Source: a virus
Taxonomy: Duplodnaviria > Caudoviricetes
IMG/VR virus record: IMGVR_UViG_3300045391_006539
Length of the DNA stretch: 64,000 bases
Strand: one strand, 5' to 3'
Positions 11,038-58,266 of the stretch are shown piece by piece; positions within the stretch are counted from its first letter, which is position 1, and each line of letters starts with the position of its first letter. A program made the position numbers and the translations under genes. The notes beneath the pieces were generated by a model that saw only the letters and a program-made list of their open reading frames with translations, was not told the origin of the DNA and did not search any database.

Positions 11038-12074
11038 TTTCCCTGGGAGAAGAACTGCGCACGGATGGTGGCGCGTTCACCAGCGATGATGCTCGACAAC
11101 TGGTCCCGCGGGATGCCCATGCGGTCCGCGATGATGACGGATGCGATGAAGTTGCTCTCCAGCAGAGTGGTTATTCCAGCGAGCATGCCGTTTTGCGTGG
11201 CCAGGTGCTGGCTGAGCGTGGAGATGGCGTCGAGCAAGGGGCCCGCCGCACCCTGATTGCTCGGGTCACTCGGAGTCTGCGGCTGGCGTGGGGGTTGCGC
11301 GGCGGAGGGCGGACTTGCGGGCGGCTGCGCTCCCGGCGGCGTGAAGCCATAGTTGGGCGGGGTGCCCGGTGGCACGGGTGTGTTCATGGGGGGACCAGGC
11401 GGGGTCCAACCACCGGCACCCGGGGGCGGCCCTGCCGGTGGGGTGTAGCCCTGGGGCGGCCCTGCTGGCGGTCCCTGGGGCGGGGCCGCACCGGGCGGTA
11501 CATAGCCGCCTGGAGGAGCGCCGGGCGGCGTGTAGCCGCCCACTGGCGGCGGTGTCCAGCCGCCGGGTCCTTGGGGTGCGGGGGTTGCCGGGGGACCTCC
11601 TGGAGGGCCCGGGGGCGTCCATTGCGGCTGAGCCCCACCCGGCGGCTGCCAGGCGCCTGGAGGCGGCGGTGCGGCACCCGGAGGTGTGTAACCGCCGGGT
11701 CCCTGGGGCGGGCCGGCGTAGGGGAGCTGCTGTTGCTGGCCCGGGGGCGCGTAGGCACCGGGAGGGGGTCCGCCGGCGTAGTTCGATTGCGTCATGACTG
11801 GTTGTGCTCCTTGGGGTGCTGCATTGGGTGCTGCATTGGGTGGGGTGATGGCTGCGACCGCAGCCGTTTGTGGGTTGCCATCCAAGCGGATGAGCATGTC
11901 GTAGATGACTTGCGCTTTCTCTGGATGTTGGAGAGCGCAGAAGGCGTCCTCGGACTCCTCGTTGCCGCCGAAGATTTGTCCGGCGAGAGCGAGGCGGTAG
12001 AGGATGGCCGGGCTTTCCTTGTTGAGCTTCGCCAGGTCGCGGGGCGCTTGCTCCAGGCCGTAGAGTATCGACAT
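11034..12074 (-). CDS. Hypothetical protein with long Pro/Gly-rich low-complexity centre
   Basis: About 200-aa P/G/Q region with repeated G[YWF]TPP units between folded-looking ends; GAGGT RBS. Confidence 0.7.
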   Translation of the reverse strand: MSILYGLEQAPRDLAKLNKESPAILYRLALAGQIFGGNEESEDAFCALQHPEKAQVIYDMLIRLDGNPQTAAVAAITPPNAAPNAAPQGAQPVMTQSNYAGGPPPGAYAPPGQQQQLPYAGPPQGPGGYTPPGAAPPPPGAWQPPGGAQPQWTPPGPPGGPPATPAPQGPGGWTPPPVGGYTPPGAPPGGYVPPGAAPPQGPPAGPPQGYTPPAGPPPGAGGWTPPGPPMNTPVPPGTPPNYGFTPPGAQPPASPPSAAQPPRQPQTPSDPSNQGAAGPLLDAISTLSQHLATQNGMLAGITTLLESNFIASVIIADRMGIPRDQLSSIIAGERATIRAQFFSQGK

Positions 12075-24770: not shown

Positions 24771-24817
24771 CGGATACGCCCTTCAATTCAACCTCTGGGT
24801 GTACGGGTGCAGGCGGC

Positions 24818-24825
24818 CTTATCCC
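24818..24825 (-). promoter_or_regulatory. Candidate phage promoter GGGATAAG
   Basis: Same motif precedes several (-) units; intergenic upstream of dnaB; sits in the loop of GGCGG/CCGCC. Confidence 0.5.
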
Positions 24826-24899
24826 GCCGGTGCCTCCCGGTTTGCGGCAACCGGGGCTGACCATCCTGCTCGTACGAACAGGACCTGTCAAACGTCGAA

Positions 24900-27819: not shown

Positions 27820-28261
27820 GTCCCGTGTGCATCTCCTTTCCGGTGACGAGACCCATGGCTTGGGCTCTTCCATCCATCGCAATTCTTATTCCGTTTCTGA
27901 TGAGTTCTTCATGCCAGTGTCGGTCGGAGGGAGCCATGTCCTCGAAGAACGCGTAGTCACAAGGTGTGAGAATGAGGCTTCCCTGCTCGATATTGAGGAT
28001 GTGGCTCACCGATTGAGCTTGAACCAATCGCTCGAGCACGGGAATCGGACCCCTTTCCGTCATCGTCGTCTTCTGGAGGACCGTGCAAAAGAACTCGAGT
28101 GGATAGCGCATGCGGATGGGGTTGCCGATGTGCTCGATGAAGTAGCGCCTATCCGTAAATGGGATTCCATGCTCGCAGCCCCAGAGTTGTCCAATGTACT
28201 TACCAGCAGGCGTGAAAGCGATGGCCCAGACGCCGGTGCGGAGTGCTTCGTCTATGTCCAT
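27812..28261 (-). CDS. Hypothetical protein
   Basis: In-operon ORF, 149 aa. Confidence 0.65.
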   Translation of the reverse strand: MDIDEALRTGVWAIAFTPAGKYIGQLWGCEHGIPFTDRRYFIEHIGNPIRMRYPLEFFCTVLQKTTMTERGPIPVLERLVQAQSVSHILNIEQGSLILTPCDYAFFEDMAPSDRHWHEELIRNGIRIAMDGRAQAMGLVTGKEMHTGHA

Positions 28262-34662: not shown

Positions 34663-35662
34663 GTGGGTCAAGGAAGCGCTCGCGCCAGCAACCCTCGCGG
34701 CGATGAGCACGGCAGTCAAAGGCTTGGGGGCCGGGGCTGGGGTGGGCGGCCTGCTCGGCGCTGGTGCCGGTGGAGCCCTCGGGGCAGTCCAAGGGTACCG
34801 GCACCAGCGCCAGCACGGAGCCGACGTCGGTCACGCCCTCGCCGGGGGTCTGAGGGGAGCGCTTCCTGGCATCGGCGCCGGCGCCCTGGCAGGTGCAGGG
34901 GTCGGTGGTATCGCTGGGGCTTTGAAGCCAATGCAAGCGCTGGCCATGGGTCAGAAGCCCGGTCTCTTGCAAAGCGCGAGCCACTTCGGCCAGCGTCAAG
35001 TCCATGCCCTCACGGGCGTTGGCGGGGCCCAGTACGCGCGCTCGGTGGGCGGAGGCGCTCACGATGCCGTCGAGCGCTACGAGGCAGCCAGGAAGGCCGT
35101 GGACGCCGTTCACGAGCTGCACCCAGACCGGGTCCCGGCCATGCGCGAGTTCACCAAGGCCCGACAGTGGCGCGACGCCGCGCTCGAGAGCGAGCGTCAG
35201 GGTATTACCAGCTTGCCGGGCTATGCCAAGGCGCTCTGGAAGAACCCGGCCGATGCCGTGGCGGCTGGAGTCAAGGACCAGTGGCACAGCATGGGTACTG
35301 GGGGACGGGCGCTCATGTATGGCCTGCCCGCCCTCAGCGTGGCGGGCGAGCTCGCCCACTCCGAGGACGAGTCGGGTAAGGGCAAGGGCCGCTTCCAGCG
35401 CGCGGGTGAGATGCTCGGCACGGCGACGGGCGCCCTCGCACCTTTGCCCATCGTCGGTGACCTCGCCTTTGGTGGGGCGCTCTCGGGCAGCTTGGGACAG
35501 GTCGGCAAGCGTCTCGACACCCGCTCCGCGCTCCGCAATTTGCAGAAGCGTCGGGGTGAGCAGGTGTCGCTCCCGCCCGAGCCACGCGGCGAGACGACAC
35601 CGAGCGAGTACATCGCGAGCGACAGGGCCTCAGGGGTCATCCCAGAAAGCGTCACGGCATGA
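34655..35662 (+). CDS. Gly/Ala-rich (glycine-zipper-like) putative virion/ejection protein
   Basis: GAGAGVGGLLGAGAGG repeats; N-terminal VKEAL. Confidence 0.6.
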   Translation: MPEWVKEALAPATLAAMSTAVKGLGAGAGVGGLLGAGAGGALGAVQGYRHQRQHGADVGHALAGGLRGALPGIGAGALAGAGVGGIAGALKPMQALAMGQKPGLLQSASHFGQRQVHALTGVGGAQYARSVGGGAHDAVERYEAARKAVDAVHELHPDRVPAMREFTKARQWRDAALESERQGITSLPGYAKALWKNPADAVAAGVKDQWHSMGTGGRALMYGLPALSVAGELAHSEDESGKGKGRFQRAGEMLGTATGALAPLPIVGDLAFGGALSGSLGQVGKRLDTRSALRNLQKRRGEQVSLPPEPRGETTPSEYIASDRASGVIPESVTA

Positions 35663-37686
35663 GTTTCGTCGGCAGTATCTCGGCAGGCACGGCTGGTAGT
35701 CCTGGCCGCTTCATGGCGCAGACCCGGGGGCGGGTACAGGGCTCCGTCGCGAACGGGGTGAACTACCCGAGTCCGTTCTTCGACGTCGCTCATACCTATC
35801 TACCCGTCACCATCAAGCAGCTCTTTCGCTGGTGTCGGTACTACTTCCTGACCAATCCGCTCATCAACGCGACGGTCTTCAAGCTGTCCGAGTATCCCAT
35901 CACGGACATCATCATCGAGCACCCCGAGCCGAAGGTGCGGCATCGTTGGGAAGAGTACTTTCAGGACCACCTGCGCTTCCGCGCATTCCAGGTCGAGTGC
36001 GGTCTCGACTACCACGCTTACGGCAACATGCTCGGCTCGCTCGGGTTCCCGTTCAAGAAGTACCTCAGCTGCCGAGTCTGTGGCTTCAAGGAGCGGGCGG
36101 ACAAGATTCGCCAGCACTGGACCTTCACGAATACGGCCTTTCGCTTGACGTGTCCCACGTGTGGGCAGACGGGTGATGCCTCGGCGCGCGATATTTACTA
36201 CCGCAACGCGAGCGGCATCAACCTCATCCGCTGGAACTGCGAGCACGTCGAAATCAACTACAACGACGCGACCGGCGAGACGACGCACTTCTACACCATC
36301 CCGCCGCAGGTGAAGAACGACATCACCATCGGCAAGAAGGACATCGTCGAGAGCATCCCGCAGGTCTTCATCGAGGCCATCCGCCAGCAGAAGGGCATCG
36401 TCTTTTCGAAGGACAACCTCTTCCACATGAAGCGGGCGACGCTCGCCCAGCAGGACCGTGGTTGGGGCATCCCACTCATCCTGCCGGTGTTGAAGGACGC
36501 CTTCTACCTGCAAATCATGAAGAAGGCGCAGGAGGCCATCCTGCTCGAGCACATCGTGCCACTGCGCGTGCTCTTCCCCCAGGCAGGTTCTGGTTCGAGC
36601 GACCCGTATACCAGTGTGAACCTCGTCGACTGGCGCGACCACGTCGCGACCGAGATTGCACGCTGGCGTTATGACAATAACTACATACCTATTCTCCCTC
36701 TACCTATTGGCAATCAGACCATTGGTGGTGATGGCAGAGCTCTACTCCTTACTCAGGAGATTCAAATCTGGTCTGAGCAGATGATGGTGGGCATGGGCGT
36801 GCCCAAAGAGTTCCTGCTCGGCGGCATGAGCTACGCTGGCACCAACGTCTCCATGCGCATGCTGGAGAACGCCTTCATCGGCTACATCCTGCGCCAGAAG
36901 CAGATGGCGAACTGGGTCATGCAGCAGGTCTCGGCATTCATGGGCTGGCCTCGAGCGCAGGTGCGCTTCAAGCCGTTCAAGATGGCCGATGACATCCAGC
37001 GCAAGGCCTTCCTGTTCCAGCTCAACCAGGCCAACAAGATTTCCGACACCACGCTCCTCGCCGACTGCGACCTCAATCAGGAGGATGAGGACGAAGTGAT
37101 GATTCGCGAGACGTCCAAGCGTTTGCAGGCAACCAAGCTGCAGCAAATCGCCATGGCGCAGATTCAGGGCGAGGCCTCGGTCGTCATGGCCAAGTTCCAG
37201 GCCAAGGCGCAGCAGGTTTCCCAGGCGGTCCTGATGACCCCGCCGGCGCCGGGTGAGCCCGGGGCAGAGCAGGAGATGATGAACCAGGCCATGCAGGGGC
37301 AGGCGGCCCCACCACAGCTGCCTGCGGGCACACAGAGCCCGCTCAATGCGGGGCAGCAGGCAGGCGTCCAGCCCGCTCCTGATAGCCTCGCCGAGGCCGA
37401 CCTCAATGCCCAGGCGCAACAGGGTGTGGACATCCACCAGCTCGCCACCATGCTGGCCGAGCAGTATCTGTCGCTCGGTGCCGACGAGCAGCAAATGGCG
37501 CTCCAGAATCTCCAGGCTCAGAGTCCCGAGCTCGCGGAGCTGGTCTTGCAGGAAGTCCACCGCATGCAGGCACAGGGCATGGGTCCACAGCAGATGCCTG
37601 GGGCGCTCGGCGCGAGCGTCTCCCAGGTGGACACTAGACCTTTGCCCGAGCAGCGGGGACCTCGTCGCATGGCTGCATCCGTATGA
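35659..37686 (+). CDS. Portal protein
   Basis: R.CRYYF..NPLIN.....SEYP, FHMKR....GWGIP.I, GMGVP..L...SYA portal-like pattern; Zn-ribbon insert; Q-rich tail. Confidence 0.75.
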   Translation: MSFVGSISAGTAGSPGRFMAQTRGRVQGSVANGVNYPSPFFDVAHTYLPVTIKQLFRWCRYYFLTNPLINATVFKLSEYPITDIIIEHPEPKVRHRWEEYFQDHLRFRAFQVECGLDYHAYGNMLGSLGFPFKKYLSCRVCGFKERADKIRQHWTFTNTAFRLTCPTCGQTGDASARDIYYRNASGINLIRWNCEHVEINYNDATGETTHFYTIPPQVKNDITIGKKDIVESIPQVFIEAIRQQKGIVFSKDNLFHMKRATLAQQDRGWGIPLILPVLKDAFYLQIMKKAQEAILLEHIVPLRVLFPQAGSGSSDPYTSVNLVDWRDHVATEIARWRYDNNYIPILPLPIGNQTIGGDGRALLLTQEIQIWSEQMMVGMGVPKEFLLGGMSYAGTNVSMRMLENAFIGYILRQKQMANWVMQQVSAFMGWPRAQVRFKPFKMADDIQRKAFLFQLNQANKISDTTLLADCDLNQEDEDEVMIRETSKRLQATKLQQIAMAQIQGEASVVMAKFQAKAQQVSQAVLMTPPAPGEPGAEQEMMNQAMQGQAAPPQLPAGTQSPLNAGQQAGVQPAPDSLAEADLNAQAQQGVDIHQLATMLAEQYLSLGADEQQMALQNLQAQSPELAELVLQEVHRMQAQGMGPQQMPGALGASVSQVDTRPLPEQRGPRRMAASV

Positions 37687-38342: not shown

Positions 38343-38395
38343 AGCGGTCTATTCACGTGCGGAGATGTGATGCACGTGCCTTTCTTCCATAGTTG

Positions 38396-39706
38396 TTATT
38401 CCTCAAAATCGTCAGAAATTGCGGCACTCTGCAGATTGCGTAGAACTTCATACCGCTTCTGCACGTTGCGGTCGTTGGACGTGAGAATCTGAATGCCCCA
38501 GTCGCAGGGTCGGCGTGTCCAAGGTCCTGGGGCGAGTAGCCACACGAACTCGGTGCCGCGTGGCTTGTGAGTAGGCGCGACGCCGTCTCCATCCGTCGAG
38601 TAGAAGATGATGTCGGGTTTGGGTCTGGAAGACATCACCCGTTCGATGGCTGGGATGAAGTTCGTACCACTCCGACCCACGACGGGCAAGGTGAAGAGCT
38701 CGCGCACACCGATGCGGATGGGTTCTCTCTTTACACTGGCGTCACAGGCGAGGTACCAGACCTCCGAGAATCCGAGCTGCATCATGGCGTGAGCGAACTC
38801 GTAGCGGTTCTCCCGGAGCTGTGGGCTACCCATCGAACCACTCGAATCTTCTATGAAGTAGACGACGGGTTCGTAGGTGATGAGGCCGGGTCGGAGAAGG
38901 CCGATGGCGTAGCTGCGCCGGGAGGGTCGGCGGAGCGAGTAGTCGCTTTGCCCCGAGCGCACACGACCGCAGGCATCCCCCAGCACCATGGGCACGACTT
39001 GTTGCCAGGGGACGACCGCTTCTTCGGTACCATCGAACCGGAGGAGTTCCTCCATGAAGGCCGGCATATTGCCCCGCCCGAAAGCGCCGCTCTTGGCAGC
39101 CTCTCTGAGGGCTTGCTTGCCGGCTTGTTTGAAGTACTGGACCTCCGATTCGCTGCGACCCTGTTCCTTCGTCTTCTGTTCGGAGGGTGATGGCTTTCCA
39201 CCCGAGCAGGTGCCGCAGCGTCCAGAGCCCACTGACAGAGCCTTGGGTCGCTTGTCGGGAGGCAGATTCTTCAGGAGCTCGTAGTACTTCTCTCCAGTGA
39301 GTCCCTTGGGGAAGCCGTAGTTCTTGCTAAAGAGTCCCTCTGGCGGCAGCTTGACGCCGAGGGAGTCGAGCATGTCGTTGATGGGGAAGTCGAAGGCGCA
39401 GGCCAAGAGCTCCCACTCGCTTTGAGGAAAGCTGACGATGCGCGGCAGATGGTCGTTCAGAATGTGCAACGCCTCGTGTATGAGTAGACCACTCGCCACT
39501 TCTACATCCCACTGTGAATACCAGTGGTAATCGATGCCGAGGAGCATCTTGTCCGTGACGAATAGCGTTTGGATGGCCTGGACGTTCTCGGGGACGAGGC
39601 CGAGTACGGTCACGTAGAAGTAGGGGAACTTGGATTTGATGTGGAGACGGGCCTGCTGCAAGCGGATGATGCCCGCACCGATACTCTGTAGCTCAGTCTT
39701 GGACAT
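38396..39706 (-). CDS. DUF2201-type metallopeptidase + vWA domain protein
   Basis: LIHEALH, D..IN, GLTGEKYY.LL, EDSSGSM, GTNF, STDGDG. Confidence 0.85.
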   Translation of the reverse strand: MSKTELQSIGAGIIRLQQARLHIKSKFPYFYVTVLGLVPENVQAIQTLFVTDKMLLGIDYHWYSQWDVEVASGLLIHEALHILNDHLPRIVSFPQSEWELLACAFDFPINDMLDSLGVKLPPEGLFSKNYGFPKGLTGEKYYELLKNLPPDKRPKALSVGSGRCGTCSGGKPSPSEQKTKEQGRSESEVQYFKQAGKQALREAAKSGAFGRGNMPAFMEELLRFDGTEEAVVPWQQVVPMVLGDACGRVRSGQSDYSLRRPSRRSYAIGLLRPGLITYEPVVYFIEDSSGSMGSPQLRENRYEFAHAMMQLGFSEVWYLACDASVKREPIRIGVRELFTLPVVGRSGTNFIPAIERVMSSRPKPDIIFYSTDGDGVAPTHKPRGTEFVWLLAPGPWTRRPCDWGIQILTSNDRNVQKRYEVLRNLQSAAISDDFEE

Positions 39707-40961
39707 AGTCAGTGATGTTATTGTCCGCCATCCAGCGGTATACGGGGTCTGCGAAGATGCGAATCGCTGGGCTCACGCTCCGACCGAGGTTCTTGCTGAG
39801 CAGGGTTCGTGCACCAGAGACGATGACGTCGCCCATGTCGGCTTGGATAAAGTTGCTGAAAATGCTCCAGGCGCGAGCGGCCATGTCGATGGCCACCTGT
39901 CGGTCGGGGATGCTGGCAACGTACTCCGTCACGCTCGTGAGGACGGCGTAGCCGACATCCATGCGGTGATTGTTGGGCTGGAAACCTTTCTCGAGGACCT
40001 CCTCGGGTCTCGGCAGGTCGGCATTGCGCAGCCAGGTGAGCATGTCGAATGCAGCTCCCTCACCCACGCAGCCCTCTATCATGAGCTGCCCGATGGCCTC
40101 GGAATGACCGAGCGCATCTGCGGTGGCCTTGAGGCGCCCGGCGAGTCTCCAAGTACGGTGTGAGGGCCAGTTGTACCCCGATTGCGGGTGGTCCGTCGAT
40201 GGTTCCATGTGTAGTGTCATGCCCTGCCGATACTCGTGGTAGCCCGTCAGCATGGCTTTGGCGTGAGCATAGGTCGAGCTCCAGCGGGAGCGAACGATGT
40301 CTTCTCCCTTGGCGGCGTCGAATTTGGGTGTCGCCCGCTCGCTCGCCATGAAGGCAATCCAATCTCGGTGGGGTGGCGGCTTCACCTGGAGGTGGCAGTA
40401 GCGGTTGGCCGTTGCCGGTGATAGGTGGAAACCACTGGTCGACCACTTGGGTGGGTTGGCTGCAGCCAGGATGCGAATGCCGGGAGCAAGGCGGGTATCC
40501 CCAACGACTCGGTCTTGGATGAAGCCGAGCATGGCTCCTTCCGTTGCTCGAGTCGCGTTGTTGGCCTCGTCGAGGAAGATGACGCCTCGACCCTGTGGGT
40601 TGAGCCAGCGCACGGCGGCGAGCATGCACTCGATGGTGGGCCCATTCAAGCCAGGCATGAGCACGCCTGCAAAATCTTCGGGTTGGCGCTGGCCTGGGTA
40701 GATGGGTGCGTAGGGCAGCATGCATTCGATGCACGCCTGTTTGACCTTGTCGCTCTTGGCCGTAGAGGGTAGACCCCAGTAGAAGACGGGAGCGCCCCAA
40801 ATGCAGTCGGGTTCGAAGGGGTCTCCCATGGGAGTCATGATGGCGACGTGCGCCGTGACGTGCATGACGTTGGTGGCATCCGGCACGTTCGCATCTTCGA
40901 TGCCGACGTGCATGGTGCTGCCTTTGGAATGGTCGAATACGTGCTTTTTCTGGTCAGGCAT
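39693..40961 (-). CDS. MoxR-type AAA+ ATPase
   Basis: WGLPSTAKS, IFLDEAN, AAANPP, ANRY, PSHRTW; adjacent to DUF2201. Confidence 0.85.
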   Translation of the reverse strand: MPDQKKHVFDHSKGSTMHVGIEDANVPDATNVMHVTAHVAIMTPMGDPFEPDCIWGAPVFYWGLPSTAKSDKVKQACIECMLPYAPIYPGQRQPEDFAGVLMPGLNGPTIECMLAAVRWLNPQGRGVIFLDEANNATRATEGAMLGFIQDRVVGDTRLAPGIRILAAANPPKWSTSGFHLSPATANRYCHLQVKPPPHRDWIAFMASERATPKFDAAKGEDIVRSRWSSTYAHAKAMLTGYHEYRQGMTLHMEPSTDHPQSGYNWPSHRTWRLAGRLKATADALGHSEAIGQLMIEGCVGEGAAFDMLTWLRNADLPRPEEVLEKGFQPNNHRMDVGYAVLTSVTEYVASIPDRQVAIDMAARAWSIFSNFIQADMGDVIVSGARTLLSKNLGRSVSPAIRIFADPVYRWMADNNITDYVQD

Positions 40962-40976: not shown

Positions 40977-40999
40977 GGAGCCAGCACGCTGCTGGCTCC
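40977..40999. other. Perfect 10-bp hairpin upstream of MoxR
   Basis: GGAGCCAGCA-CGC-TGCTGGCTCC. Confidence 0.5.
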
Positions 41000-41035
41000 G
41001 TGGTTATCTCTGCTTCTCTGAAGAATTGCTAGACC

Positions 41036-42426: not shown

Positions 42427-42441
42427 TAGTCCTCCGATGTA

Positions 42442-42449
42442 GTTATTCC
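42442..42449 (-). promoter_or_regulatory. Candidate phage promoter GGAATAAC
   Basis: Heads the (-) island, divergent from the RNAP gene. Confidence 0.5.
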
Positions 42450-42512
42450 CGAATCAGGCCTCTTCCTTGCTGATGCAGAAGGCCGTGGGTTACCCTGGTG
42501 CGCGAGTCATCC

Positions 42513-45500
42513 ATGGCGTACCTAGACCATCAAGAAGCGTACGAGGACTTCAAGCAGTCGGTGCTCGAGGGCATCCGCAGCCACTTCCCAGTGACGGGAA
42601 GTCAGCAGAGCGTCGAGCTCAAGAACCTCGAGGTCAAGGACCTCGAGCCGGGCTCCGACGACATCCGTGGACAGCACGCGGCCAAGGTCCAGGGTGGTAG
42701 CTGGTCGAGTCCCGTCTACGCCACGCTGGTGATGAAGAACAAGGCCGGCGCGGTGGTGCAGGAGAAGACGATGCGCATCGCCGAGATTCCGCGTGTCACC
42801 AGACGCTACAGCTACATCGTCGATGGCAATGAGTATCAGGTCGACTCACAGTGGCAGCTCAAGAGCGGCGTCTACGCCCGCCGGCGTGAGAATGGCGAGC
42901 TCGAGAGCCGCTTCAACACGCCCAACAAGGGCGAGTTCAAAATCATCTTCGACCCGACGACGAAGCAGTTCAACATGCACCGGGGCAAGGCCGAGACCAT
43001 CGCGGTCTATCCGCTCATGAAGGCCATGGGCATCGATGACGATGCTCTGGAGAAGAGCTGGGGTAAGGAGGTACTCGCTGCCAACAAGAACGCTCGTGGC
43101 ATGGCGGGCGCGCTCACGAAGTTCTACAAGGCAGACCGCCGGGGTGACCCTGCCGACCACGCCGAGGCACTCAAGTACTTCCAGCAGACGATGGCAGACA
43201 GCCAGCTCGACTCGGCCGTGACGAAGACCACGCTCGGCAAGTCCTTCAGCAGCGTCGAGGGTGACACCTTGCTGCGAGCGACGGACAAGCTCATCAAGGT
43301 CCAGGGTGGCGCTCCCGAGGACGACCGGGACAGCCTCGAGTTCAAGAAGCTCCGTACGACTGGGGACTACGCCTACGACCGTCTCACGGACTGGATGACG
43401 AAGCGCTCCATTGGTGCACGCATGGCGCGTCAGGTGAACAAGGCGACCGACATCCGTCAGGTCGTCAAGTTCAACATGCTGAACGACCCTATCAAGAAGA
43501 CCTTCAAGACCAACTCGGCGAGTCGTCAGGCGAGTCAAATCAATCCGCTCGAGATGGCCGCTGCAGCCCAACAGACTACCATCATGGGGCCCGGCGGCAT
43601 TCAGAACACGCGCGTCATCGACAACACCATCAGCCTCAAGCTGGTGAATCCGAGCCACCTCGGTTTCCTCGACCCCGTCAAGACCCCGGAGAACGAGAAG
43701 ACTGGTATCATCCTGCGTCTGCCTACGGGCGTGAAGAAGGTCGACGGCGAGGCGAAGGTACCTCTCTACAACATCAAGACGGGCAAAATCGACTACCTCG
43801 GTCCGACGGAGTTCGGGCAGCAAAACGTGGTGCTCCCCGACCAGGTCACTTGGGAGAATGGCAAGCCCAATCCCATCTCCAGTGCCGTGAAAGCGAGTAC
43901 CATCGGCAACAAGCTCGGCGAGGTCAAGTTCAAGGACGCGCAGTACGTGATGCGCCACCCGTCTCAGCTCTTCAGCCTGACGACGAACCTCATCCCGTTT
44001 CTCGGCAGCAATTCTGGTAACCGTGCGACGTACGCTGGCGGTCAGATGGAGCAGGCGGTGAGTCTCAAGCACCGCGATGCGCCTCTCGTGCAGGTGGGCA
44101 CGGGCGTCAAAGACCCACACATCGATAGCTTCGAGGGCATCATGGGTCGACAGGCAGGGCACGTGTCCCTGCACTCGGGCGAGGTCGTCAAGGTGAGTAA
44201 GGATGCCGTCGCCGTCAAGATGGCCAATGGCAAGCTGCATGAGGTCCAGCTCTACGACAACTTCCCACTCAACGACCCGAAGAGCATGCTCTACTCGACG
44301 CCGACCGTGAAGGTGGGTGACAAGGTCAAAGCGGGTGACTCCGTTGCAGATACCAATTTTACGAAGGGTGGGCGCCTCGCGCTCGGCACCAACCTACGTG
44401 TGGCTTACATTCCCTACAAGGGCTACAACTTCGAGGATGGCGTCGTCATCAGCAAGAGCGCGTCCGAGAAGCTCACGAGCGAGCATCTCTACAAGGAGAG
44501 CACCCGTATCACGGATGAGACCGTTCGTGATGTGAAGAAGTTCCGTATTCAACATGCAGGCGCATTCGACGACAAGCAATACGACAAGCTCGACGACAAA
44601 GGTGTGGTCAAGATAGGCACCAAGGTTTTGCCGGGAGACCCGCTCGTGCTCGGCATGACGCCGTATAAAATCAAGGACCGCATGGGCATCGCTGCCGTAC
44701 GCAAGAGTCTGTCGGGACAGCACACCGACACGAGCCTGCGCTGGAAGAGCGACTACGCCGGTGAGGTGGTGGCCGTCCACGAGAAACCGGATGGTACGGT
44801 CGCCGTGCACGTGCGAACCGAGGAGCCCATGCAGGTCGGTGACAAGATTGCCGGCCGTTATGGCAACAAGGGCATCGTCACTCAGGTCATCGACGACGAC
44901 AAGATGCCGAAGACCAAGGATGGTAAGCACATCGAGGTCGCGCTCAACCCGAGCGGTGTACCAGGGCGCATGAACATCGGCCAGGTGCTGGAGACGGCTG
45001 CGGCGAAGATAGCGCTGAAGACGGGCAAACCCTACATCGTCAACAACTTCGACGGCTCGAGCGCCGTGGAGAAGGTGAAGAAGGAGCTCGAGAAGCACGG
45101 CCTCTCCGACCAGGAGGAACTCATCGACCCGGAGACGGGCCATTCCCTGGGCAAGGCACTGGTCGGCCCTCAGCACATGCTCAAGCTCGTGCACCAGGTG
45201 GACAAGAAGGTCTCGGTCCGTTCGGGTATGGCACCCCTCGAAGGGTCTGGGGAGACCGTCGAGAAGTACGACAGCAACCTCATCCCGAGTGGCACGGGCA
45301 AGGTCGGCGCCCAGTCCATCGGACACAACGGTCTCTACACCCTGCTCGCCCACGGCGCCAAGGCCAACATCCGCGAGATGCAGACCTGGAAGAGCGAGGG
45401 CCCCGACAAGGAGACCAACCTCGCCAAGAAATGGCCGAGTCAACACATCCAAGTCTGGGGTGCCATCCAGAGTGGTGAGTCGCTGCCGACCCCAACGCCC

Positions 45501-48500
45501 ACCTTCAGCTTCCACAAGTTCGGCGAGCTGCTCCGCGGTGCTGGCATCAACATGGAGAAGCAGGGCAACCAGCTCAAGCTCCTGCCCTTCACTGACAAGC
45601 AGACCCTCGCGCTCTCGAATGGCGAATTCAAGAAGCCGCACATGCTGACGGACGCCCGTCTCGACGACAAGGGTGAGCTCCGACCGTACTCGGGTGGTCT
45701 CTTCGACCCGCGCATCACGGGCGGCCATGGGGGCAGGGGCTGGGGTCACATCACTTTGCCCGAGCCGGTGCCCAACCCAGTCTTCGAGGGTGCCATCCGC
45801 AAGCTCACGGGTCTCTCCCAGAAGGACTACGATGACCTCGCTGGCGGCATGCGTGCGCTCGGGAAGAGCGGCAAGTTGGTCGAGCTCAATACGCCAGGCT
45901 CGGTCACTGGTGGTACAGCACTCAAGCAGATGCTCGACGACATCGACCCGAAGAAGGAGCTCGCCAAGGCGGAGAAGGAGCTCGCGGGCATGAAGCTCAC
46001 GAGCAGCATTGCGCATGGCGCTTCGACCCAGAAGGTCGATGCGCTCGTGAAGAAAATCAAATACCTGCGTACGCTCGACCAGGTTGGCATGAAGCCGAGC
46101 GAGGCGTACATCATCAAGCACTTGCCCGTCATCCCGCCGGCACTACGTCCGCCGGCGCTCATGAACGGCGACGTCAAGTGGGACGACCTCAACGGGCTCT
46201 ACCAGAACCTCGGGCAGCTGGTCACGCGCATGAAGGACCCGACGCTCGAGAAGAGCCTGACCGACAAGGGCAAGATGGAGCTCCGGAGCGACATCTACGA
46301 TGGCGTCAAGGCCATCATGGGTCTCGATAAGCTCACGGATGACAAGCAGAAGAAGGGCATCCTCCACCAGATTGCCAACAACGGCAATCAACCGAAGCAT
46401 GGCTTCTTCCAGGCGACGCTCATGAAGCGCAAGCAGGACCTGACCATGCGCTCGACCATCATCCCGGAGCCGTCGCTGGGTCTGGACGAGATTGGTCTGC
46501 CCAGGGACAAGGCCCTGTCTCTCTACAAGCCGTTCGTGGTGCGGAAGTTGGTGGAGATGGGCGCCGCGCGTAGTCCCCTGTCTGCCCAGCAGCTCATCGC
46601 CGACAAGGACAAGAGCGTCTACCGAGCGCTCGAGCTCGCGACGTCCGAGCGGCCCGTGCTCATCAAGCGCGACCCGGCGCTGCACAAGCACAGCGTCCAG
46701 GCCTTCAAGCCACGGCTGGTGCAGGGCATCGCCGTGCGCATCCACCCGCTCACTACTAGCGGCTTCAACGCCGACTTCGATGGTGACACCATGAGTGCCT
46801 ACGTGCCCATCAGCGATGAGGCCGTGAAGGAAGCCCGGGACATGTTCCCGAGCAACAATCTCTACAATGAAGCAACGGGCAAGGTCATCTACAAGCCCAC
46901 GCTCGAGGGTGCACTGGGTCTGTTCAAGCTCTCCCGCGTCACCGGCGACAGTGGCAAGAGCTATACCAGCATGGCCGAGGCCCTCAAGGCCGTGAAGGGC
47001 GGGGGTCTACCCATTGACAAGACCATCACCGTCGCCGGTCAGAAGACGACGCCGGGACGCCTGCTCATCGCCAGCGCTCTGCCCCAGCAGATGCAGAAGA
47101 AGTACATGAACGCAGACCCCAAGATGCTGGTCGATGGCAAGGGTCTCGATGCGCTCTTCGACGAGCTCGCCAAGAACCACAAGGCCGAGTTCGGCGTGGC
47201 GGCGAACCGTCTCAAGGACCTGGGCAACGGCGCGGCCTACGGCTCCATCATGGTGTCGAACTCGGGCAATGATGGACCGCGCGCCATTGCTGCCGCCGAG
47301 GGTCACACCAAGCGCGAGTTCATCCCCATACCCACGCACTCGCTCAGTCTCGACGACTTCATGGTCGACAAGGGTCTACGCCAGAAGCACGTCTCTTCAG
47401 CCCAGCGCCAGGTGGACTCCATTCAGAAGTCTCGTATGACCCCGGCGGAGAAGGAACGCAAGACCGTGGGGGTCTGGCAGAAGATGATGACGGACCTGAC
47501 TTCCGAGCATCTCGCCAAGCACGAGAAAGACCCGAGCAACCTCGCGCTCATGGTGCAGGCAGACGTCAAGCCCAGCAAGACACAGTACCGACAGATGGTG
47601 CTCGCTCCCGGCATCCTCGAAGATGCGGCGGGCAAGCCCATCGCCATCCCCGTCATCAAGAGCTACGCCGAGGGTCTCGACCTCGCGGGCTACTGGATTC
47701 AGTCGAGTGGTGCACGTGGCGGCACCATCAAAAAAGTGCAAGAGGTCAGAGACCCTGGTGCATTTAGCAAACAGCTGATGCAGACCACCATGGGCTCGGC
47801 GCTCGTGGCTGAGGAAGATTGCGGCACCCAGCGTGGTGTGAGCATGAGTGTGGGGCACCGTGACGTACACGACCGGGTGCTCGCGGCAGATTTCAACGCC
47901 AAGGGTATGACGATTCCAAAAGGGACCGTCCTATCTCCCGACGTCGTCGCGAAGATTCGTGCGCTCGATAAAGACTCGAGCGTCCTCGTCCGTTCGACCC
48001 TGAAGTGCGAACACGAGAAAGGCGTGTGTCAGAAGTGTGCGGGGGTCAGTCCGAATGGCGGCTTCTACCGCATTGGTACAAACCTCGGCGTCATTGCGGC
48101 GCAGGCGCTCGGCGAGCGCAGCATCCAGCTCACGCTCAAGGCATTTCACTCGGGTGGTGTGAGCACGGGTGGCAGTGGGACCATGAACAGCTTCAAGCGC
48201 GTCGAGGACCTGACCAATCTACCCTCGACCATCGCCGACTCGGCGACGCTCGCCATGCAAGGAGGGACTATCGAGAAGCTGGAGAGCGACGCGACGGGCA
48301 CCAAGGTCTGGATTGGTGGCAAGGCACACCACATCGGCAAGGACCGTGCGGGTCAGCTCCTCAGCAAGCCACTGGCTGGTGTGAACACCAGTTGGTCACC
48401 GCCCAAGGTGGGCATGAAGGTCGAGGCGGGGCAAGTCCTCAGCGACCCGACTCGCTCCTTCGTCAACCCTCACGACCTCTACAAGGCCACCGGCAGCATG

Positions 48501-48971
48501 GAGCGGGTTCAGAACTTCCTGACCGACGAGCTGCACGGCATCTACCAGAGCGAGGGCGTCCGCCGCCAGAACGTCGAGACCGTGGTGCGCTGCATGGGGC
48601 AGCTCACCAAGGTGCGGGACTCGGGTGACGCGGAGGGAGTGCTGAAGGGCGAGTATCGAAACGCATCTCACATCCGAGCCATCAACAAGGAGCTCGCCCG
48701 TCAGGGCAAGCGCCCCGTCGAGCATTCGCCCATCCTCAAGGGTATCGATATCTTGCCGCGCGAGATGCAGGAAGATTGGATGGCCAAGCTCATGCATAAC
48801 CACCTGAGCCAGACCATCTTGCAGGCTGCAGCAACGGGCGCGGTCTCTGACATCCACGGCACGCATCCCGTACCCGGCATCGCTTTTGGTGCGGAGTTCG
48901 GACGCACGAAGAAGGACTCTTTGAAGCCAGGTCTAGGTCATCTACGAAGTGCTCCGGATTATGGGTACTGA
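42513..48971 (+). CDS. rpoBC: DNA-directed RNA polymerase, fused beta-beta' single chain
   Basis: beta: YIVDGNEY, GPGGI, KTPE, GYNFEDG, GDKIAGRYGNKG, LNPSGVPGRMNIGQ, KLVHQVDKK; beta': GLFD, PVIPPALRP, RDPALHK, FNADFDGD, GARG, AAQALGERSIQLTLKAFHSGG. Confidence 0.95.
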   Translation: MAYLDHQEAYEDFKQSVLEGIRSHFPVTGSQQSVELKNLEVKDLEPGSDDIRGQHAAKVQGGSWSSPVYATLVMKNKAGAVVQEKTMRIAEIPRVTRRYSYIVDGNEYQVDSQWQLKSGVYARRRENGELESRFNTPNKGEFKIIFDPTTKQFNMHRGKAETIAVYPLMKAMGIDDDALEKSWGKEVLAANKNARGMAGALTKFYKADRRGDPADHAEALKYFQQTMADSQLDSAVTKTTLGKSFSSVEGDTLLRATDKLIKVQGGAPEDDRDSLEFKKLRTTGDYAYDRLTDWMTKRSIGARMARQVNKATDIRQVVKFNMLNDPIKKTFKTNSASRQASQINPLEMAAAAQQTTIMGPGGIQNTRVIDNTISLKLVNPSHLGFLDPVKTPENEKTGIILRLPTGVKKVDGEAKVPLYNIKTGKIDYLGPTEFGQQNVVLPDQVTWENGKPNPISSAVKASTIGNKLGEVKFKDAQYVMRHPSQLFSLTTNLIPFLGSNSGNRATYAGGQMEQAVSLKHRDAPLVQVGTGVKDPHIDSFEGIMGRQAGHVSLHSGEVVKVSKDAVAVKMANGKLHEVQLYDNFPLNDPKSMLYSTPTVKVGDKVKAGDSVADTNFTKGGRLALGTNLRVAYIPYKGYNFEDGVVISKSASEKLTSEHLYKESTRITDETVRDVKKFRIQHAGAFDDKQYDKLDDKGVVKIGTKVLPGDPLVLGMTPYKIKDRMGIAAVRKSLSGQHTDTSLRWKSDYAGEVVAVHEKPDGTVAVHVRTEEPMQVGDKIAGRYGNKGIVTQVIDDDKMPKTKDGKHIEVALNPSGVPGRMNIGQVLETAAAKIALKTGKPYIVNNFDGSSAVEKVKKELEKHGLSDQEELIDPETGHSLGKALVGPQHMLKLVHQVDKKVSVRSGMAPLEGSGETVEKYDSNLIPSGTGKVGAQSIGHNGLYTLLAHGAKANIREMQTWKSEGPDKETNLAKKWPSQHIQVWGAIQSGESLPTPTPTFSFHKFGELLRGAGINMEKQGNQLKLLPFTDKQTLALSNGEFKKPHMLTDARLDDKGELRPYSGGLFDPRITGGHGGRGWGHITLPEPVPNPVFEGAIRKLTGLSQKDYDDLAGGMRALGKSGKLVELNTPGSVTGGTALKQMLDDIDPKKELAKAEKELAGMKLTSSIAHGASTQKVDALVKKIKYLRTLDQVGMKPSEAYIIKHLPVIPPALRPPALMNGDVKWDDLNGLYQNLGQLVTRMKDPTLEKSLTDKGKMELRSDIYDGVKAIMGLDKLTDDKQKKGILHQIANNGNQPKHGFFQATLMKRKQDLTMRSTIIPEPSLGLDEIGLPRDKALSLYKPFVVRKLVEMGAARSPLSAQQLIADKDKSVYRALELATSERPVLIKRDPALHKHSVQAFKPRLVQGIAVRIHPLTTSGFNADFDGDTMSAYVPISDEAVKEARDMFPSNNLYNEATGKVIYKPTLEGALGLFKLSRVTGDSGKSYTSMAEALKAVKGGGLPIDKTITVAGQKTTPGRLLIASALPQQMQKKYMNADPKMLVDGKGLDALFDELAKNHKAEFGVAANRLKDLGNGAAYGSIMVSNSGNDGPRAIAAAEGHTKREFIPIPTHSLSLDDFMVDKGLRQKHVSSAQRQVDSIQKSRMTPAEKERKTVGVWQKMMTDLTSEHLAKHEKDPSNLALMVQADVKPSKTQYRQMVLAPGILEDAAGKPIAIPVIKSYAEGLDLAGYWIQSSGARGGTIKKVQEVRDPGAFSKQLMQTTMGSALVAEEDCGTQRGVSMSVGHRDVHDRVLAADFNAKGMTIPKGTVLSPDVVAKIRALDKDSSVLVRSTLKCEHEKGVCQKCAGVSPNGGFYRIGTNLGVIAAQALGERSIQLTLKAFHSGGVSTGGSGTMNSFKRVEDLTNLPSTIADSATLAMQGGTIEKLESDATGTKVWIGGKAHHIGKDRAGQLLSKPLAGVNTSWSPPKVGMKVEAGQVLSDPTRSFVNPHDLYKATGSMERVQNFLTDELHGIYQSEGVRRQNVETVVRCMGQLTKVRDSGDAEGVLKGEYRNASHIRAINKELARQGKRPVEHSPILKGIDILPREMQEDWMAKLMHNHLSQTILQAAATGAVSDIHGTHPVPGIAFGAEFGRTKKDSLKPGLGHLRSAPDYGY

Positions 48972-49003
48972 TTCAGAGTTGAGTAGATGCTAGACTCGAG
49001 TTC

Positions 49004-50976: not shown

Positions 50977-51246
50977 TCAGCCGAGTGCACGTAGGTCATG
51001 AACCTCTTCGATGTTGGTGACCACCCATCCTGATTCGGTATCGGTGGTGTCTAGTCCCCCCAATTTCTCTAGGGTGGGAACTGGGTCGAGCACCTTTCGG
51101 TAGACCTCGGGTTCGTTACCGAACCGCACCTCGAAAAGCTCACTTCGGTCGCCCTTTTCATTCACCGTGAAAGGCCAACTCGGATGCGCAAAGAGAAAGA
51201 TGTTCCGGTGTGGATACCCAGTTCTGATGGTGAATTGATAAATCAT
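50977..51246 (-). CDS. Hypothetical protein (solitary opposite-strand gene)
   Basis: GGAGG RBS; own GGAATAAG motif at 51270-51277. Confidence 0.6.
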   Translation of the reverse strand: MIYQFTIRTGYPHRNIFLFAHPSWPFTVNEKGDRSELFEVRFGNEPEVYRKVLDPVPTLEKLGGLDTTDTESGWVVTNIEEVHDLRALG

Positions 51247-51269
51247 CGCGTTCTAGTCCCTCCAGTCCG

Positions 51270-51277
51270 CTTATTCC
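51270..51277 (-). promoter_or_regulatory. Candidate phage promoter GGAATAAG
   Basis: Intergenic; in the loop of CCAGTCCG/CGG(T)ACTGG. Confidence 0.55.
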
Positions 51278-51310
51278 GGTACTGGCAAACTCTTTGCTAT
51301 CCTCTCGGCC

Positions 51311-55147: not shown

Positions 55148-55388
55148 GACCGAAGCTCAGAAACCGCTTCTCGAAGACGAGGTCTTTCAGCATCCAGCCC
55201 GCCTCCTTCGTGTGCCAGCGCATGAAGTGACGCACCATGGGTCTCATCTTGACGGGGATGACCTCGCGCGCCTGGAAGTAGATTAGGTATCCGTCCTCCA
55301 GTGTCTGGATGACCGGGTTGTAGAATATCTCGTACGCTCTCTGTAGAGAGGCGAGCAGGTCTTCCACATAGGTATCTACTTTCATCAT
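55101..55388 (-). CDS. Hypothetical protein, head-to-head with terminase
   Basis: 95 aa, protein-like composition; fills the otherwise empty 55148-55386 gap. Confidence 0.45.
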   Translation of the reverse strand: MMKVDTYVEDLLASLQRAYEIFYNPVIQTLEDGYLIYFQAREVIPVKMRPMVRHFMRWHTKEAGWMLKDLVFEKRFLSFGLMPREQRRACRRTHP

Positions 55389-58266
55389 GGCAGCAGCCGA
55401 AGTCTATCTCGACAACGACGAAGAGGAACTCCCAGATGTCTCTGCGAGCCATCCGGATTACATCTGGCAGCCTGAAGAGGACCCCGAGGAGCCGGACCTG
55501 CTAATCCGCGAGGAAGCCATTGCGAAGCTACCCAAACTACCACGGGTCAAGCCGAGCGTCTTCACGCAGACTGCCTTTCTCATGCCCACCGAGGTGGGTG
55601 AGGGTGACCAGCAGACCATAGAGCTCAGGAACTTCTCGTTCAAGGAGCGCCCGCACCTGCGCCGCATCTACGATACGGCGTGTCGTCGTGTATTGCTCAT
55701 GTGCGCTCGTCAGGTGGAGAAGTCCACCCTGCTCGGCAATATCTCCATCGCGTACTCGTGCATCGTCCCCGGCTACCGCACGCTCTACGTCTCGCCCTCT
55801 GCCACTCAGACCAAGACCTTCAGCGCCGACCGCATCAAGGAGCCGCTCGAGACCAGCACCTTCCTTCGTCAGTTCACGACGAAGATGCTCTCCATGAACA
55901 TCCTGGAGAAGCAGTTCATCAATCGCAGCAAGATTACCCTGCGCTACGCGTTCCTCAACGCCGACCGCTGCCGAGGAATTCCGGCATGGGCTCTGTTCCT
56001 GGATGAGATTCAGGACATCCTCGCCGACAACATCCCCGTCATCGAGGCCTGCCAGAACCACGCGCCCAAGCGCTGGCGTCGCAACATCTACAGCGGCACT
56101 CCGAAGTCCCTCGACAACACCATCGAGACTTACTGGTCGTCGATGAGCACGATGAACGAGTGGGTCGTGCCCTGTGAGGGGTGCAACAACTGGAACATCC
56201 TGGGCGAGAAGAACATCGGCAGGAAGGGCATCGTCTGTACCAAGTGCGGCAAGTACCTGAACGCTCAGCACCCACGAGCTCAGTGGGCCGCGCAGCGCCA
56301 GTTCGACGACGTGAAGGTCCCCTTCGAGGGCTACCGCATCAGTCAGTTGATGGTGCCCTGGGTGGACTGGAACGAAATTCTCATTGCCTATGAGAAGCAC
56401 GGGCGTGACAAGTTTTATAACGAGACGCTCGGCATTTCGTACGACTCGGGCATGCGCCCGCTCACTCGGGCGCAGGTCATGGCGGTTTGCAACCCCGAGA
56501 TTACGATGTATGACTCGAAGCAGCGCGAGTACTACAAGCAGCTCAGCGCTGCTCAGCCCATCTTCGCTGGCATTGATTGGGGATGTCATGACGAAGACAC
56601 CCGCATCCTGACGAGGGATGGCTTCAAGTACTTTCGAGACCTGGGTGACAAGGACGAGGTTGCTCAGTGGGACCCAGACACTCGGGAGATGACTTACACC
56701 AAACCGAAGGCCGTGACCGTGAGGGATTGGGACCAGCCCCTTCTGCACTTCAAGACCAAGGGTGGTCTCGACATGATGTTGACCCACACCCATCGCATGC
56801 GGGTGGGCGCCCAGCAGGGGGAGCACTGGCTGACGGAATCTGCAGGTGAGCTTGCTGAGCGGGGTGGCAACGTGAAGTTCGTGGGCCACGTCGAGTGGAA
56901 GGGCGACTTCGATGCCGTGGGCTTCATCTTGCCAGGTCTACCAAAGAGTCCTGGCTACAAGGGTTCCGAGGACGTTGAGTACAGAATGGACGACTGGCTC
57001 GAGTTCCTCGGCTATGTCCTGTCCGAGGGTGGTGTTTGCCTGAAGAAGAACAAGGTAGGTGAGCTCGTTCCTTACTGCGTGAAGATGTCACAGCGGGAGA
57101 CAGTGAGTCCAGAGAAGTACGAGAAGATTCGTATGTGCATGGTGCGTATGGGTCTCAACTTCACGGCATTTCCCAACCCGAAGACGGGCGATGTCAACTG
57201 GACCATCTACGGTAAGCAGCTCTGGAGCTGGCTTGCCAAGCATGTAGGGATGACGGGTGACGTGAAGCGCATCCCCGCCATGTTCAAGCGTCTCTCTAAG
57301 CGGCAACTGCGCATTCTGTTCGACGCCATGCTCCTCGGTGACGGTTACGTAGACCCACGGGATGGTTGCACGGGTGGCGCCTACTACTCGACGTCGAAGA
57401 AACTCTGCGAGGATTTTCAGGAACTCTGCATCAAGTTGGGTCTACGTTGCGTGGTGCGTCTGCACAAACCAGCCGCAGGCAATCGCAAGGCTCGCTACCG
57501 TGCATCTTGGTCTGTGGGCAGGGACTATACATTCAACAAGCCCAGCACCAGCATCGAGCGAGTCCCCTACAAGGGCAAGGTCTACTGCTGCTCGGTGCCC
57601 ACGGGCTACATCGTGACCGAGCGCAATGGTTGCATTGCGTATCAGGGCAACACGGGCGAACATTCGTACACGGTGCTCACCCTGGCCACGTACATCGGGC
57701 GCAAGTTCCGCTGCTTCTACATCCACCGCTTCGTCGGCGAGGAGACGGAGCCCGACCGGCAGATAGAGCTCATCATCGAGACCTTGCGCTACTACAACGT
57801 GGCGCTCATCGGTTGTGACTATGGTGGTGGTCACTACCCGAACGACAAACTCGTTCGTGTCTTCGGTCCCAACAAGGTCTGGAAGTATCAGTACTCCAAC
57901 ACGCCGAAGCAGGCATACAAGTGGAACCCGCAGCTCCTACGCTTCATGCTCCACCGCACCGAAGTGATGAGCCAAATCTTCAATGCCATCAAGCGCCGGC
58001 GTGAATGTGAGTTTCCTCGCTGGGAGGAGTTCGAGAAGCCCTACGCTCAGGACTTCCTCAACATCTACAGTGAGGACAACAAGATGACGCGCATCATTCA
58101 GTACAAGCATGCGCTCGACAAGCCCGACGACAGCTTCCATTCGTTCCTCTACTGCTGGCTGGTCTCGATGCTGAAGTTCCGTCGCCCAGACATCATCAAG
58201 CCCAACCGCGAGGACGCGAAGGGCAATCAGGTGCCCATCTATACGGGGCCTGTCGAGCAGTCGTGA
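55387..58266 (+). CDS. terL: Terminase large subunit, intein-containing
   Basis: ARQVEKST Walker A, LFLDEIQD Walker B, SGTP, CxxC..CxxC, G.ISQL, GIDWG nuclease, PDDSFHS. Confidence 0.9.
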   Translation: MAAAEVYLDNDEEELPDVSASHPDYIWQPEEDPEEPDLLIREEAIAKLPKLPRVKPSVFTQTAFLMPTEVGEGDQQTIELRNFSFKERPHLRRIYDTACRRVLLMCARQVEKSTLLGNISIAYSCIVPGYRTLYVSPSATQTKTFSADRIKEPLETSTFLRQFTTKMLSMNILEKQFINRSKITLRYAFLNADRCRGIPAWALFLDEIQDILADNIPVIEACQNHAPKRWRRNIYSGTPKSLDNTIETYWSSMSTMNEWVVPCEGCNNWNILGEKNIGRKGIVCTKCGKYLNAQHPRAQWAAQRQFDDVKVPFEGYRISQLMVPWVDWNEILIAYEKHGRDKFYNETLGISYDSGMRPLTRAQVMAVCNPEITMYDSKQREYYKQLSAAQPIFAGIDWGCHDEDTRILTRDGFKYFRDLGDKDEVAQWDPDTREMTYTKPKAVTVRDWDQPLLHFKTKGGLDMMLTHTHRMRVGAQQGEHWLTESAGELAERGGNVKFVGHVEWKGDFDAVGFILPGLPKSPGYKGSEDVEYRMDDWLEFLGYVLSEGGVCLKKNKVGELVPYCVKMSQRETVSPEKYEKIRMCMVRMGLNFTAFPNPKTGDVNWTIYGKQLWSWLAKHVGMTGDVKRIPAMFKRLSKRQLRILFDAMLLGDGYVDPRDGCTGGAYYSTSKKLCEDFQELCIKLGLRCVVRLHKPAAGNRKARYRASWSVGRDYTFNKPSTSIERVPYKGKVYCCSVPTGYIVTERNGCIAYQGNTGEHSYTVLTLATYIGRKFRCFYIHRFVGEETEPDRQIELIIETLRYYNVALIGCDYGGGHYPNDKLVRVFGPNKVWKYQYSNTPKQAYKWNPQLLRFMLHRTEVMSQIFNAIKRRRECEFPRWEEFEKPYAQDFLNIYSEDNKMTRIIQYKHALDKPDDSFHSFLYCWLVSMLKFRRPDIIKPNREDAKGNQVPIYTGPVEQS
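56584..57651 (+). mobile_element. Intein (356 aa, LAGLIDADG type) in terminase nuclease domain
   Basis: IDWG|CHDEDTRILT, LTHTHRM, LGYVLSEG, AMLLGDG, VYCCSVP...QGN|T. Confidence 0.9.

Follow-up and report, generated by a model that had tools for sequence, protein, structure and literature searches.

Can a bacterial-style RNA polymerase work as one chain with a small sigma factor, carried in a phage particle and injected into the host? This question is raised by a locus of a large uncultured soil phage, in the virus record IMGVR_UViG_3300045391_006539, a linear record of 150,234 bp with an estimated completeness of 80%. The 64,000-nucleotide (nt) part of the record analyzed here (the window) carries, at 42513..48971 on the plus strand, a single-chain β-β′ RNA polymerase gene of 2152 amino acids (aa). 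The observations described below make it moderately probable that an alpha-less virion polymerase, together with a phage sigma factor, transcribes the early genes. The more specific picture, an injected two-protein holoenzyme in which an alpha-free β-β′ chain and a small sigma-70 read a sigma28-like bipartite promoter in a widespread phage family, has about an even chance of being correct.

An earlier sequence-only reading of this stretch had described one open reading frame (ORF) of about 2150 residues with β and then β′ motifs, joined near position 45550, and this description holds. The Pfam domains follow each other in the order Rpb2_3, Rpb2_6, Rpb1_1 (partial), Rpb1_2 and Rpb1_5, and the junction motifs quoted in that reading map to 45528-45581. 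The profile of the polymerase family aligns with E. coli β over residues 7-1019 and with β′ over residues 1003-2132 (probability 100% each), and in this alignment the ORF is colinear with bacterial β-β′ at 27-28% identity. With the in-frame GTG at 42498 as start, the protein would be five residues longer (2157 aa); the starts of the homologues coincide with the ATG at 42513.

Residue conservation was counted in an alignment of 180 family sequences with identities of 36-77%. The β half (about residues 1-1017, 42513..45563, plus strand like all parts of the gene) was delimited by the E. coli profile alignment and is devoid of the E. coli insertions at about 225-343, 938-1042 and 1122-1180. The β′ half (about residues 1018-2152, 45564..48968) is without the large E. 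coli trigger-loop insertion. The junction between them (residues 1012-1025, 45546..45587) is predicted to be a two-strand hairpin with a two-residue turn, and its length is identical in 178 of the 180 homologues. The β′ N-terminal zinc-binding domain, correctly recognized as deleted in the sequence-only reading, is replaced in the profile and family alignments by a glycine loop (45696..45758), which substitutes for about 32 residues of the E. coli domain; a cysteine is found at this site in 0/180 family members. The ORF is compact because the insertions of the E. coli lineage and the zinc-binding domain are absent, and falls about 200 aa below the shortest bacterial β+β′ pairs in the sample (about 2320-2350 aa). 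It is not minimal, as had been proposed: the β and β′ subunits of type b of mReC (multi-subunit-RNAP-encoding Caudovirales; Weinheimer and Aylward 2020), a phage lineage described from metagenomes, total about 1890-1970 aa.

The β catalytic barrel (44421..44873) carries E641/D642 at the positions of E. coli E813/D814 and K778/K786 at those of K1065/K1073, and D642, K778 and K786 are invariant in 180/180 sequences. In the β′ half, the NADFDGD active-site loop, with D1421, D1423 and D1425 invariant in 180/180, occupies 46767..46787, exactly as first read, and the second zinc site (C1770, C1832, C1839 and C1842; 47814..48038) is also kept as claimed. Q1872 and H1879 of the trigger loop (48126..48149) are conserved, and the equivalents of R678, R1106, R425 and H936 are invariant in the 180 sequences. 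As judged from the alignment, the catalytic residues checked are intact and invariant or nearly so in the 180 sequences. The ORF has the sequence hallmarks of two-barrel polymerases, namely the β′ DxDGD barrel and the two β lysines, and is predicted to synthesize RNA from DNA. Its rifampicin pocket is degenerate (Q513R, D516S, H526A, R529Q, S531T and L533M in E. coli numbering). These are known resistance positions, and the degenerate pocket therefore predicts that the polymerase is probably insensitive to rifampicin.

Structure prediction, which had been suggested as a check, agrees with these assignments. An AlphaFold2 model of residues 585-1505, calculated from 81 sequences, has a predicted local distance difference test score (pLDDT) of 86 and a predicted template modeling score of 0.77. 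The junction is a hairpin in this model, and its closest fold matches are bacterial β′ chains. A single-sequence fold of residues 851-1996 was discarded at a pLDDT of 38.

The ORF belongs to a large family of phage proteins. A protein search returned at least 120 matches, almost all of them full-length fused proteins with 53-77% identity, on contigs of up to 200 kb. The viral loci fetched with an alignment, at identities down to 36%, are single reading frames in 80/80 cases, so that the β-β′ fusion is not an assembly error. The polymerases of several relatives (including L003 and L093) carry large in-frame insertions and are 2500-3249 aa long. The relatives keep the gene order portal, polymerase, conserved plus-strand genes, terminase, and in those examined the portal gene is on the polymerase strand, upstream of the polymerase gene. 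In the window, the portal protein gene (35659..37686, +) encodes a protein with 33% identity to the portal Gp204 of Salmonella phage Arash. The gene for the terminase large subunit (55387..58266, +) is of the lambda gpA type (PF05876), and the capsid of the record is phrog_2522. Each of four fused genomes has one polymerase match, and by sequence the ORF is the only recognizable RNA polymerase of the family. The family consists of myoviruses of roughly 180-200 kb and includes phage Arash and Vibrio phage D69. A literature search, mostly without subscription papers, found no published description of its fused members. Two family contigs (L168 and L169; 162 and 204 kb) in Leptolyngbyaceae and Bacteroidales GTDB bins were rejected as a clue to the host; they are phage-sized and probably mis-binned.

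The placement of the family was examined in a concatenated tree of 44 rows and 1571 columns, obtained by a quick search among bacterial and phage sequences without archaea or eukaryotes, with an outgroup that is mostly β′ only and without giant-virus β subunits. Six of the fetched loci match mReC contigs of PMC7481178. The fused family, Arash and D69 form one clade with a support of 100 in the Shimodaira-Hasegawa-like approximate likelihood ratio test (SH-aLRT). The mReC types a and b form a separate clade (100), and Bacteria a third (99). The phage groups and the phages RHph_TM30 and Carin-5 join in one cluster (95), the internal order of which is uncertain and which could be a long-branch effect. 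Approximately unbiased (AU) tests on 20 rows with LG+G4, which share the long-branch bias of the tree, reject a clade of the family plus Bacteria (p 0.006); a clade of the family plus mReC is absent from the tree and is not rejected (p 0.08), gut mReC lineages being outside the sample. The family is thus placed by these sequences in a clade of its own, outside Bacteria and outside the sampled mReC. The phylogeny had been set beforehand as the refutation test for a phage enzyme, and it shows no nesting in bacterial rpoBC, nor are the flanks host-like. The view of a compact phage polymerase rather than a host gene is upheld by this clade and by the portal and terminase flanks. The best ordinary bacterial loci are 26-29% identical to the polymerase, and with the family profile the scores of bacterial subunits are about double those of mReC subunits. 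The cultured phages Carin-5, RHph_TM30 and vB_Yru_GN1 (L125, L126, L127) also encode cell-like polymerase subunits. A search with Carin-5 β′ gave no matches; Carin-5 and RHph_TM30 may be cultured relatives of mReC, because the mReC-type capsid PF07068 is found in both.

The best matches among annotated phages are Salmonella phage Arash (OQ632216) and Vibrio phages D69, D148 and D181. Arash Gp206 spans residues 15-1507 of the ORF and Gp216 spans residues 1510-2130, and both Arash and D69 split β′ into two genes near residue 1508 (about 47034 in the window). Since Gp206 covers residues 15-1507, the β-β′ junction is fused in Arash too. The polymerases of Arash and D69 are 32% and 25% identical to the ORF, and the homology with Arash extends to the portal (33%), the capsid (30%) and the terminase (E 7e-36).

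The virion proteome of Arash contains both polymerase pieces and a sigma factor: Gp206 with 3516 spectra, the most of all proteins, Gp216 with 1210 and the sigma factor Gp10 with 467 (PMC10585845). Spectra per residue, computed from the same data, are 2.3, 2.0 and 2.0, respectively, versus 1.5 for the portal, although spectral counts are not copy numbers. Gp206 was identified by 128 unique peptides, versus 2-3 for many metabolic enzymes in the list (PMC10585845). In that paper Gp206 is labeled just 'beta', and neither a fusion nor a promoter or activity is reported (PMC10585845). The packaging that had been raised as a possibility is, by this proteome, probable. Another virion protein of Arash, the 226-aa gp7 of the tail block (L008:7425-8105), resembles the bridge-helix and second zinc-site region of β′, with E 2e-7 to Gp216, 48% probability to the family profile and the cysteines kept; no separate homologue of gp7 is found in four fused genomes.

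A sigma-70 gene of the Gp10 type is present as a single copy in 19 of the 21 family records, among them every one of the eight with a completeness of 99-100%, and the match of its product to bacterial sigma-70 proteins extends from region 2 to region 4 (E 3e-18). The sigma matches in G008 and G017 (L113, L123) contain one stop codon each. The sequence-only reading had seen neither an alpha nor a sigma gene in the window. This extends to the whole 150-kb record, where alpha (PF01193) has no match, but the family as such does have a dedicated sigma. In the relative G001 the sigma gene comes after homologues of Arash gp234, gp236, gp237, gp6 and gp8, and this block has no match in the present record. 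Because the tail block of G001 begins where the record stops, the dedicated sigma gene of this phage probably lies in its unsequenced part.

The relationship between polymerase and sigma was modeled for the G001 pair, which scores 0.78 versus 0.25 for the best control, with a contact agreement of at least 65% and a partner pLDDT of at least 73. In the model, sigma docks on the clamp helices, which correspond to about residues 1222-1270 here (46176..46322) and are the predicted docking site of sigma region 2. The mark for the pair score is reached by 58/80 solved and 2/110 mismatched pairs, and the pass of the G001 pair may merely reflect likeness to solved holoenzymes. The sequence of the clamp helices has diverged from that of E. 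coli. The Pfam model of alpha finds a match in 0/18 family records, with a positive control of 14/14. In E. coli, β G1215 contacts alpha R45 (PMC13202282); the equivalent of G1215 is a proline in the ORF and, overall, in 178/180 family sequences. Arash and D69 have a second sigma-like gene (Gp196, L006:10495-11532, and 0246, L007:4831-5607), which may serve another gene class. No gene of this type is found in the three fused relatives searched, and it was rejected as the polymerase partner on account of its absence from those records and from the Arash virion list.

The promoter core proposed in the sequence-only reading was nearly right. GGNATAAG alone is at chance level, with five matches in the window and 13/100 shuffles as high, but a refined motif holds. 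De novo word counting gave G[GA][AG]ATAA[CG], with 27 sites in this genome. Seventeen of them are within 200 nt of a same-strand start, versus a background of 12.6% (p about 1e-9, post hoc), and none of the 27 precedes a structural gene. A GCAA box is located 15-17 nt upstream in 11/27 sites, and a G, the likely +1, 7 nt downstream in 23/27. The predicted promoter is GCAA-N15/17-GRRATAAS with a likely +1 G and is sigma28-like: the positions of its boxes match -35, -10 and +1 of the sigma28 fliC promoter (PMC12784957).

Since the motif was defined on this genome, its replication in other genomes is the real test. It is the top upstream word found de novo in G004, G007 and G011 and, in the form of GGTATAAG, in Arash. 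The -10 box follows the phage lineage, being GGGATAA in the fused members and GGTATAAG in Arash. CAA at a spacer of 15-17 nt is enriched in all five genomes (this one, G004, G007, G011 and Arash), and the +1 G in four of the five. Of the 27 gene-proximal sites in Arash, 26 lie on the strand of the non-structural genes; the remaining one precedes gp9-gp10, the sigma operon. The sigma gene of G004 likewise has a site, 28 nt ahead of it. No second conserved class of phage promoters appeared in the de novo search.

The window has seven refined sites, all of them minus-strand, in accord with the earlier suggestion that the polymerase transcribes the minus-strand genes, and no phage-type promoter is found in the window on the strand of the polymerase gene. 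One predicted phage-sigma promoter (42435..42470, -) is divergent from the polymerase gene, with a GCAA box, a 17-nt spacer and the -10 box at 42442-42449. Another (51263..51298, -; -10 box 51270-51277, spacer 16) lies 31 nt before ORF 50977-51246. Further predicted promoters, all on the minus strand, precede an AAA ATPase gene (40996..41031, -10 box 41003-41010), ORF 37899-38342 (38388..38423, -10 box 38395-38402) and the DnaB-like helicase gene (24811..24846, -10 box 24818-24825). One more lies at 11163..11198 (-10 box 11170-11177), and the one before the uracil-DNA glycosylase gene (27878..27913) has the -10 box only (27885-27892). For the structural genes a different signal can be proposed. 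A host-type TANNNT box, tentatively a late promoter, is located at 48991..48996 on the plus strand, 7 nt before a structural-gene start, and TANNNT occurs 5-9 nt before the start of some structural genes, a pattern chosen after viewing the data. Host polymerase probably reads the late structural genes via such host-type -10 boxes.

By combining these observations it is possible to outline how the system might operate. β and β′, joined head to tail, would assemble the two-barrel core without alpha. The polymerase would be made late, when the virion genes are expressed, would enter the particle along with a small sigma-70-type factor of the Arash Gp10 type, and would then be injected. As related phages carry the sigma and share the promoter motif, the polymerase probably travels in the particle in order to start expression of the first viral genes. 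The holoenzyme would read the GCAA-N15/17-GRRATAAS promoters, starting about 7 nt downstream on G, and would transcribe the non-structural and replication genes and the sigma gene. The structural genes would use host-type -10 boxes read by host polymerase.

Several observations weigh against this reading. Neither PF04542 nor the family profile finds a sigma gene in the 150-kb record, and the Gp10-type sigma is not found in G002, which is 91% complete. A divergent substitute for alpha could escape the Pfam model. Detection of the polymerase in virions comes from Arash only; Arash is only 32% identical and its polymerase is split differently. The Arash proteome comprises 116 proteins, metabolic enzymes among them, and carry-over of abundant proteins is considered possible by the authors (PMC10585845). 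The +1 G is not enriched in G011 (p 0.2). The enrichment of TANNNT is weak, with p 3e-4 here (post hoc), 0.03-0.04 in two relatives and 0.46 in one. Finally, a K-x-A motif of the head-block proteins occurs 0 times in the polymerase, and therefore no packaging signal was found.

The phage sigma might instead redirect the host core to these promoters, as T4 gp55 and SPO1 gp28 redirect the host core polymerase, with the fused enzyme serving other genes or borrowing host alpha. The resemblance of the phage sigma to bacterial sigma-70 over regions 2 to 4 and the ordinary bacterial geometry of the promoter are consistent with this, and the use of host alpha is beyond the reach of a Pfam search. However, the sigma and both polymerase pieces have similar spectra per residue in Arash virions, the clamp helices have diverged from those of E. 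coli, the alpha contact G1215 is replaced, and the de novo search yielded no second conserved class of phage promoters. This explanation is unlikely. An equally unlikely one is that the polymerase is not a virion component, being made during infection by host transcription and then driving middle or late genes. Its detection in Arash virions could be carry-over, it has no K-x-A motif, and the polymerase of Carin-5 adjoins a sigma gene in a replication block. On the other hand, the polymerase is encoded in the structural block, on a strand that has no phage-type promoter in the window; the genes preceded by the motif are non-structural; and the number of Gp206 peptides in Arash virions is high.

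That a host sigma28-type holoenzyme reads the promoters, unrelated to the phage polymerase, is much less likely still: the geometry and the ATAA core do resemble the sigma28 consensus, but the -10 box differs from GCCGATAA, varies with the phage lineage and is found ahead of the phage's own sigma gene. A read-through artefact or a piece of bacterial rpoBC, captured or wrongly assembled, as suggested by the bacterial β-then-β′ order and by the higher profile scores of bacterial than of mReC subunits, is already refuted by the portal and terminase flanks, the 80/80 single frames, the low identity to bacterial loci, and the tree and AU test, and retains next to no probability.

The remaining features of the window concern the phage at large. 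The replication block (11034-31728, -) encodes a family A DNA polymerase, DnaB helicase, RecA-like protein, uracil-DNA glycosylase and Cas4-like exonuclease. Intein domains are present in the helicase (28252-31728, -), and the central insertion of the terminase (55387-58266, +), which is not in relatives, is a probable intein. A DUF2201 metallopeptidase/vWA gene and the AAA ATPase gene (38396-40961, -), preceded by a phage promoter, occupy the portal-polymerase interval in closer relatives. The motif K-[TQEVL]-A-small, picked by eye, occurs 40 times in 8244 aa of head-block proteins (window 32477-35662, 51311-53662, 59091-64000 and beyond) versus 13 times in 32630 aa elsewhere and may mark prohead-protease sites. 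No tRNA was found in the window. No RNA dataset is listed as carrying the sequence; the two DNA datasets listed are soil metagenomes and may be the source of the record.

If the proposed scheme of an injected polymerase and sigma is true, no simpler bacterial-style machine for promoter-specific transcription would be known, and its polymerase would come from a lineage separate from the sampled mReC. Cellular RNA polymerases require an alpha dimer for assembly and, to our knowledge, the alpha-less phage enzymes studied so far are all very divergent. The family could show what alpha and the zinc domain are for, because it is colinear with the bacterial enzyme yet apparently consists of one chain and a sigma. 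The predicted promoter and the cultured phage Arash make the model testable with ordinary assays, and a system of two genes with a promoter of its own, probably insensitive to rifampicin, would be a candidate orthogonal expression tool.

Natural rpoBC fusions, with the β C-terminus joined to the β′ N-terminus, exist in Helicobacter and Wolbachia, where the enzymes are cellular, of full size, and have both alpha and the zinc domain. The ORF differs from bacterial rpoBC in not being nested in Bacteria, in having no host-like flanks and no zinc domain, and in the lack of an alpha gene (0/18 records). Its nearest counterparts are Arash and D69, which have an orthologous polymerase with the same junction, the same loss of the zinc domain, the same sigma family and the same promoter type. 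They differ from the fused relatives searched in that β′ is cut in two genes and a second sigma is present.

Polymerases with both barrels in one chain are known from other phages: gp96 of Thermus phage P23-45 is a single-chain two-barrel RNA polymerase, and in crAss-like phages the polymerase is delivered by the virion. The crAss-like and YonO enzymes likewise have both barrels in one polypeptide, but have no match to cellular profiles (PMC7481178), whereas the ORF does match them and is apparently sigma-dependent. The jumbo-phage polymerases of phiKZ, AR9 and PBS2 are two-barrel enzymes without alpha and omega, with a virion-carried form and rifampicin-resistant infection; they differ in having four or five chains, two sets and no sigma recognizable by sequence (PMC7598289), compared with one chain and a recognizable sigma-70 factor in the present family.

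The polymerases of mReC (PMC7481178) are likewise compact, form a deep branch outside Bacteria and have β and β′ recognizable by standard profiles, and the ORF shares with them recognizable β/β′ homology with NADxDGD on a tailed-phage contig. In mReC, however, β and β′ are separate genes in all of the about 100 supplement rows read, in the order β′ then β where checked, and often with two sets per genome. The mReC capsid PF07068 is not found in this record, in four near-complete relatives, in Arash or in D69 (RHph_TM30 and Carin-5 are positive), and the mReC terminase is PF03237, unlike the terminase here, which matches PF05876 and not PF03237. No Gp10-type sigma is found in three mReC-type records. 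The type-a β′ of mReC (L457:6831-9842) is without the N-terminal zinc domain and type b keeps it, a pattern that suggests repeated loss, perhaps in virion forms. The family would thus function in the manner of other alpha-less phage polymerases, but it is not classed as mReC.

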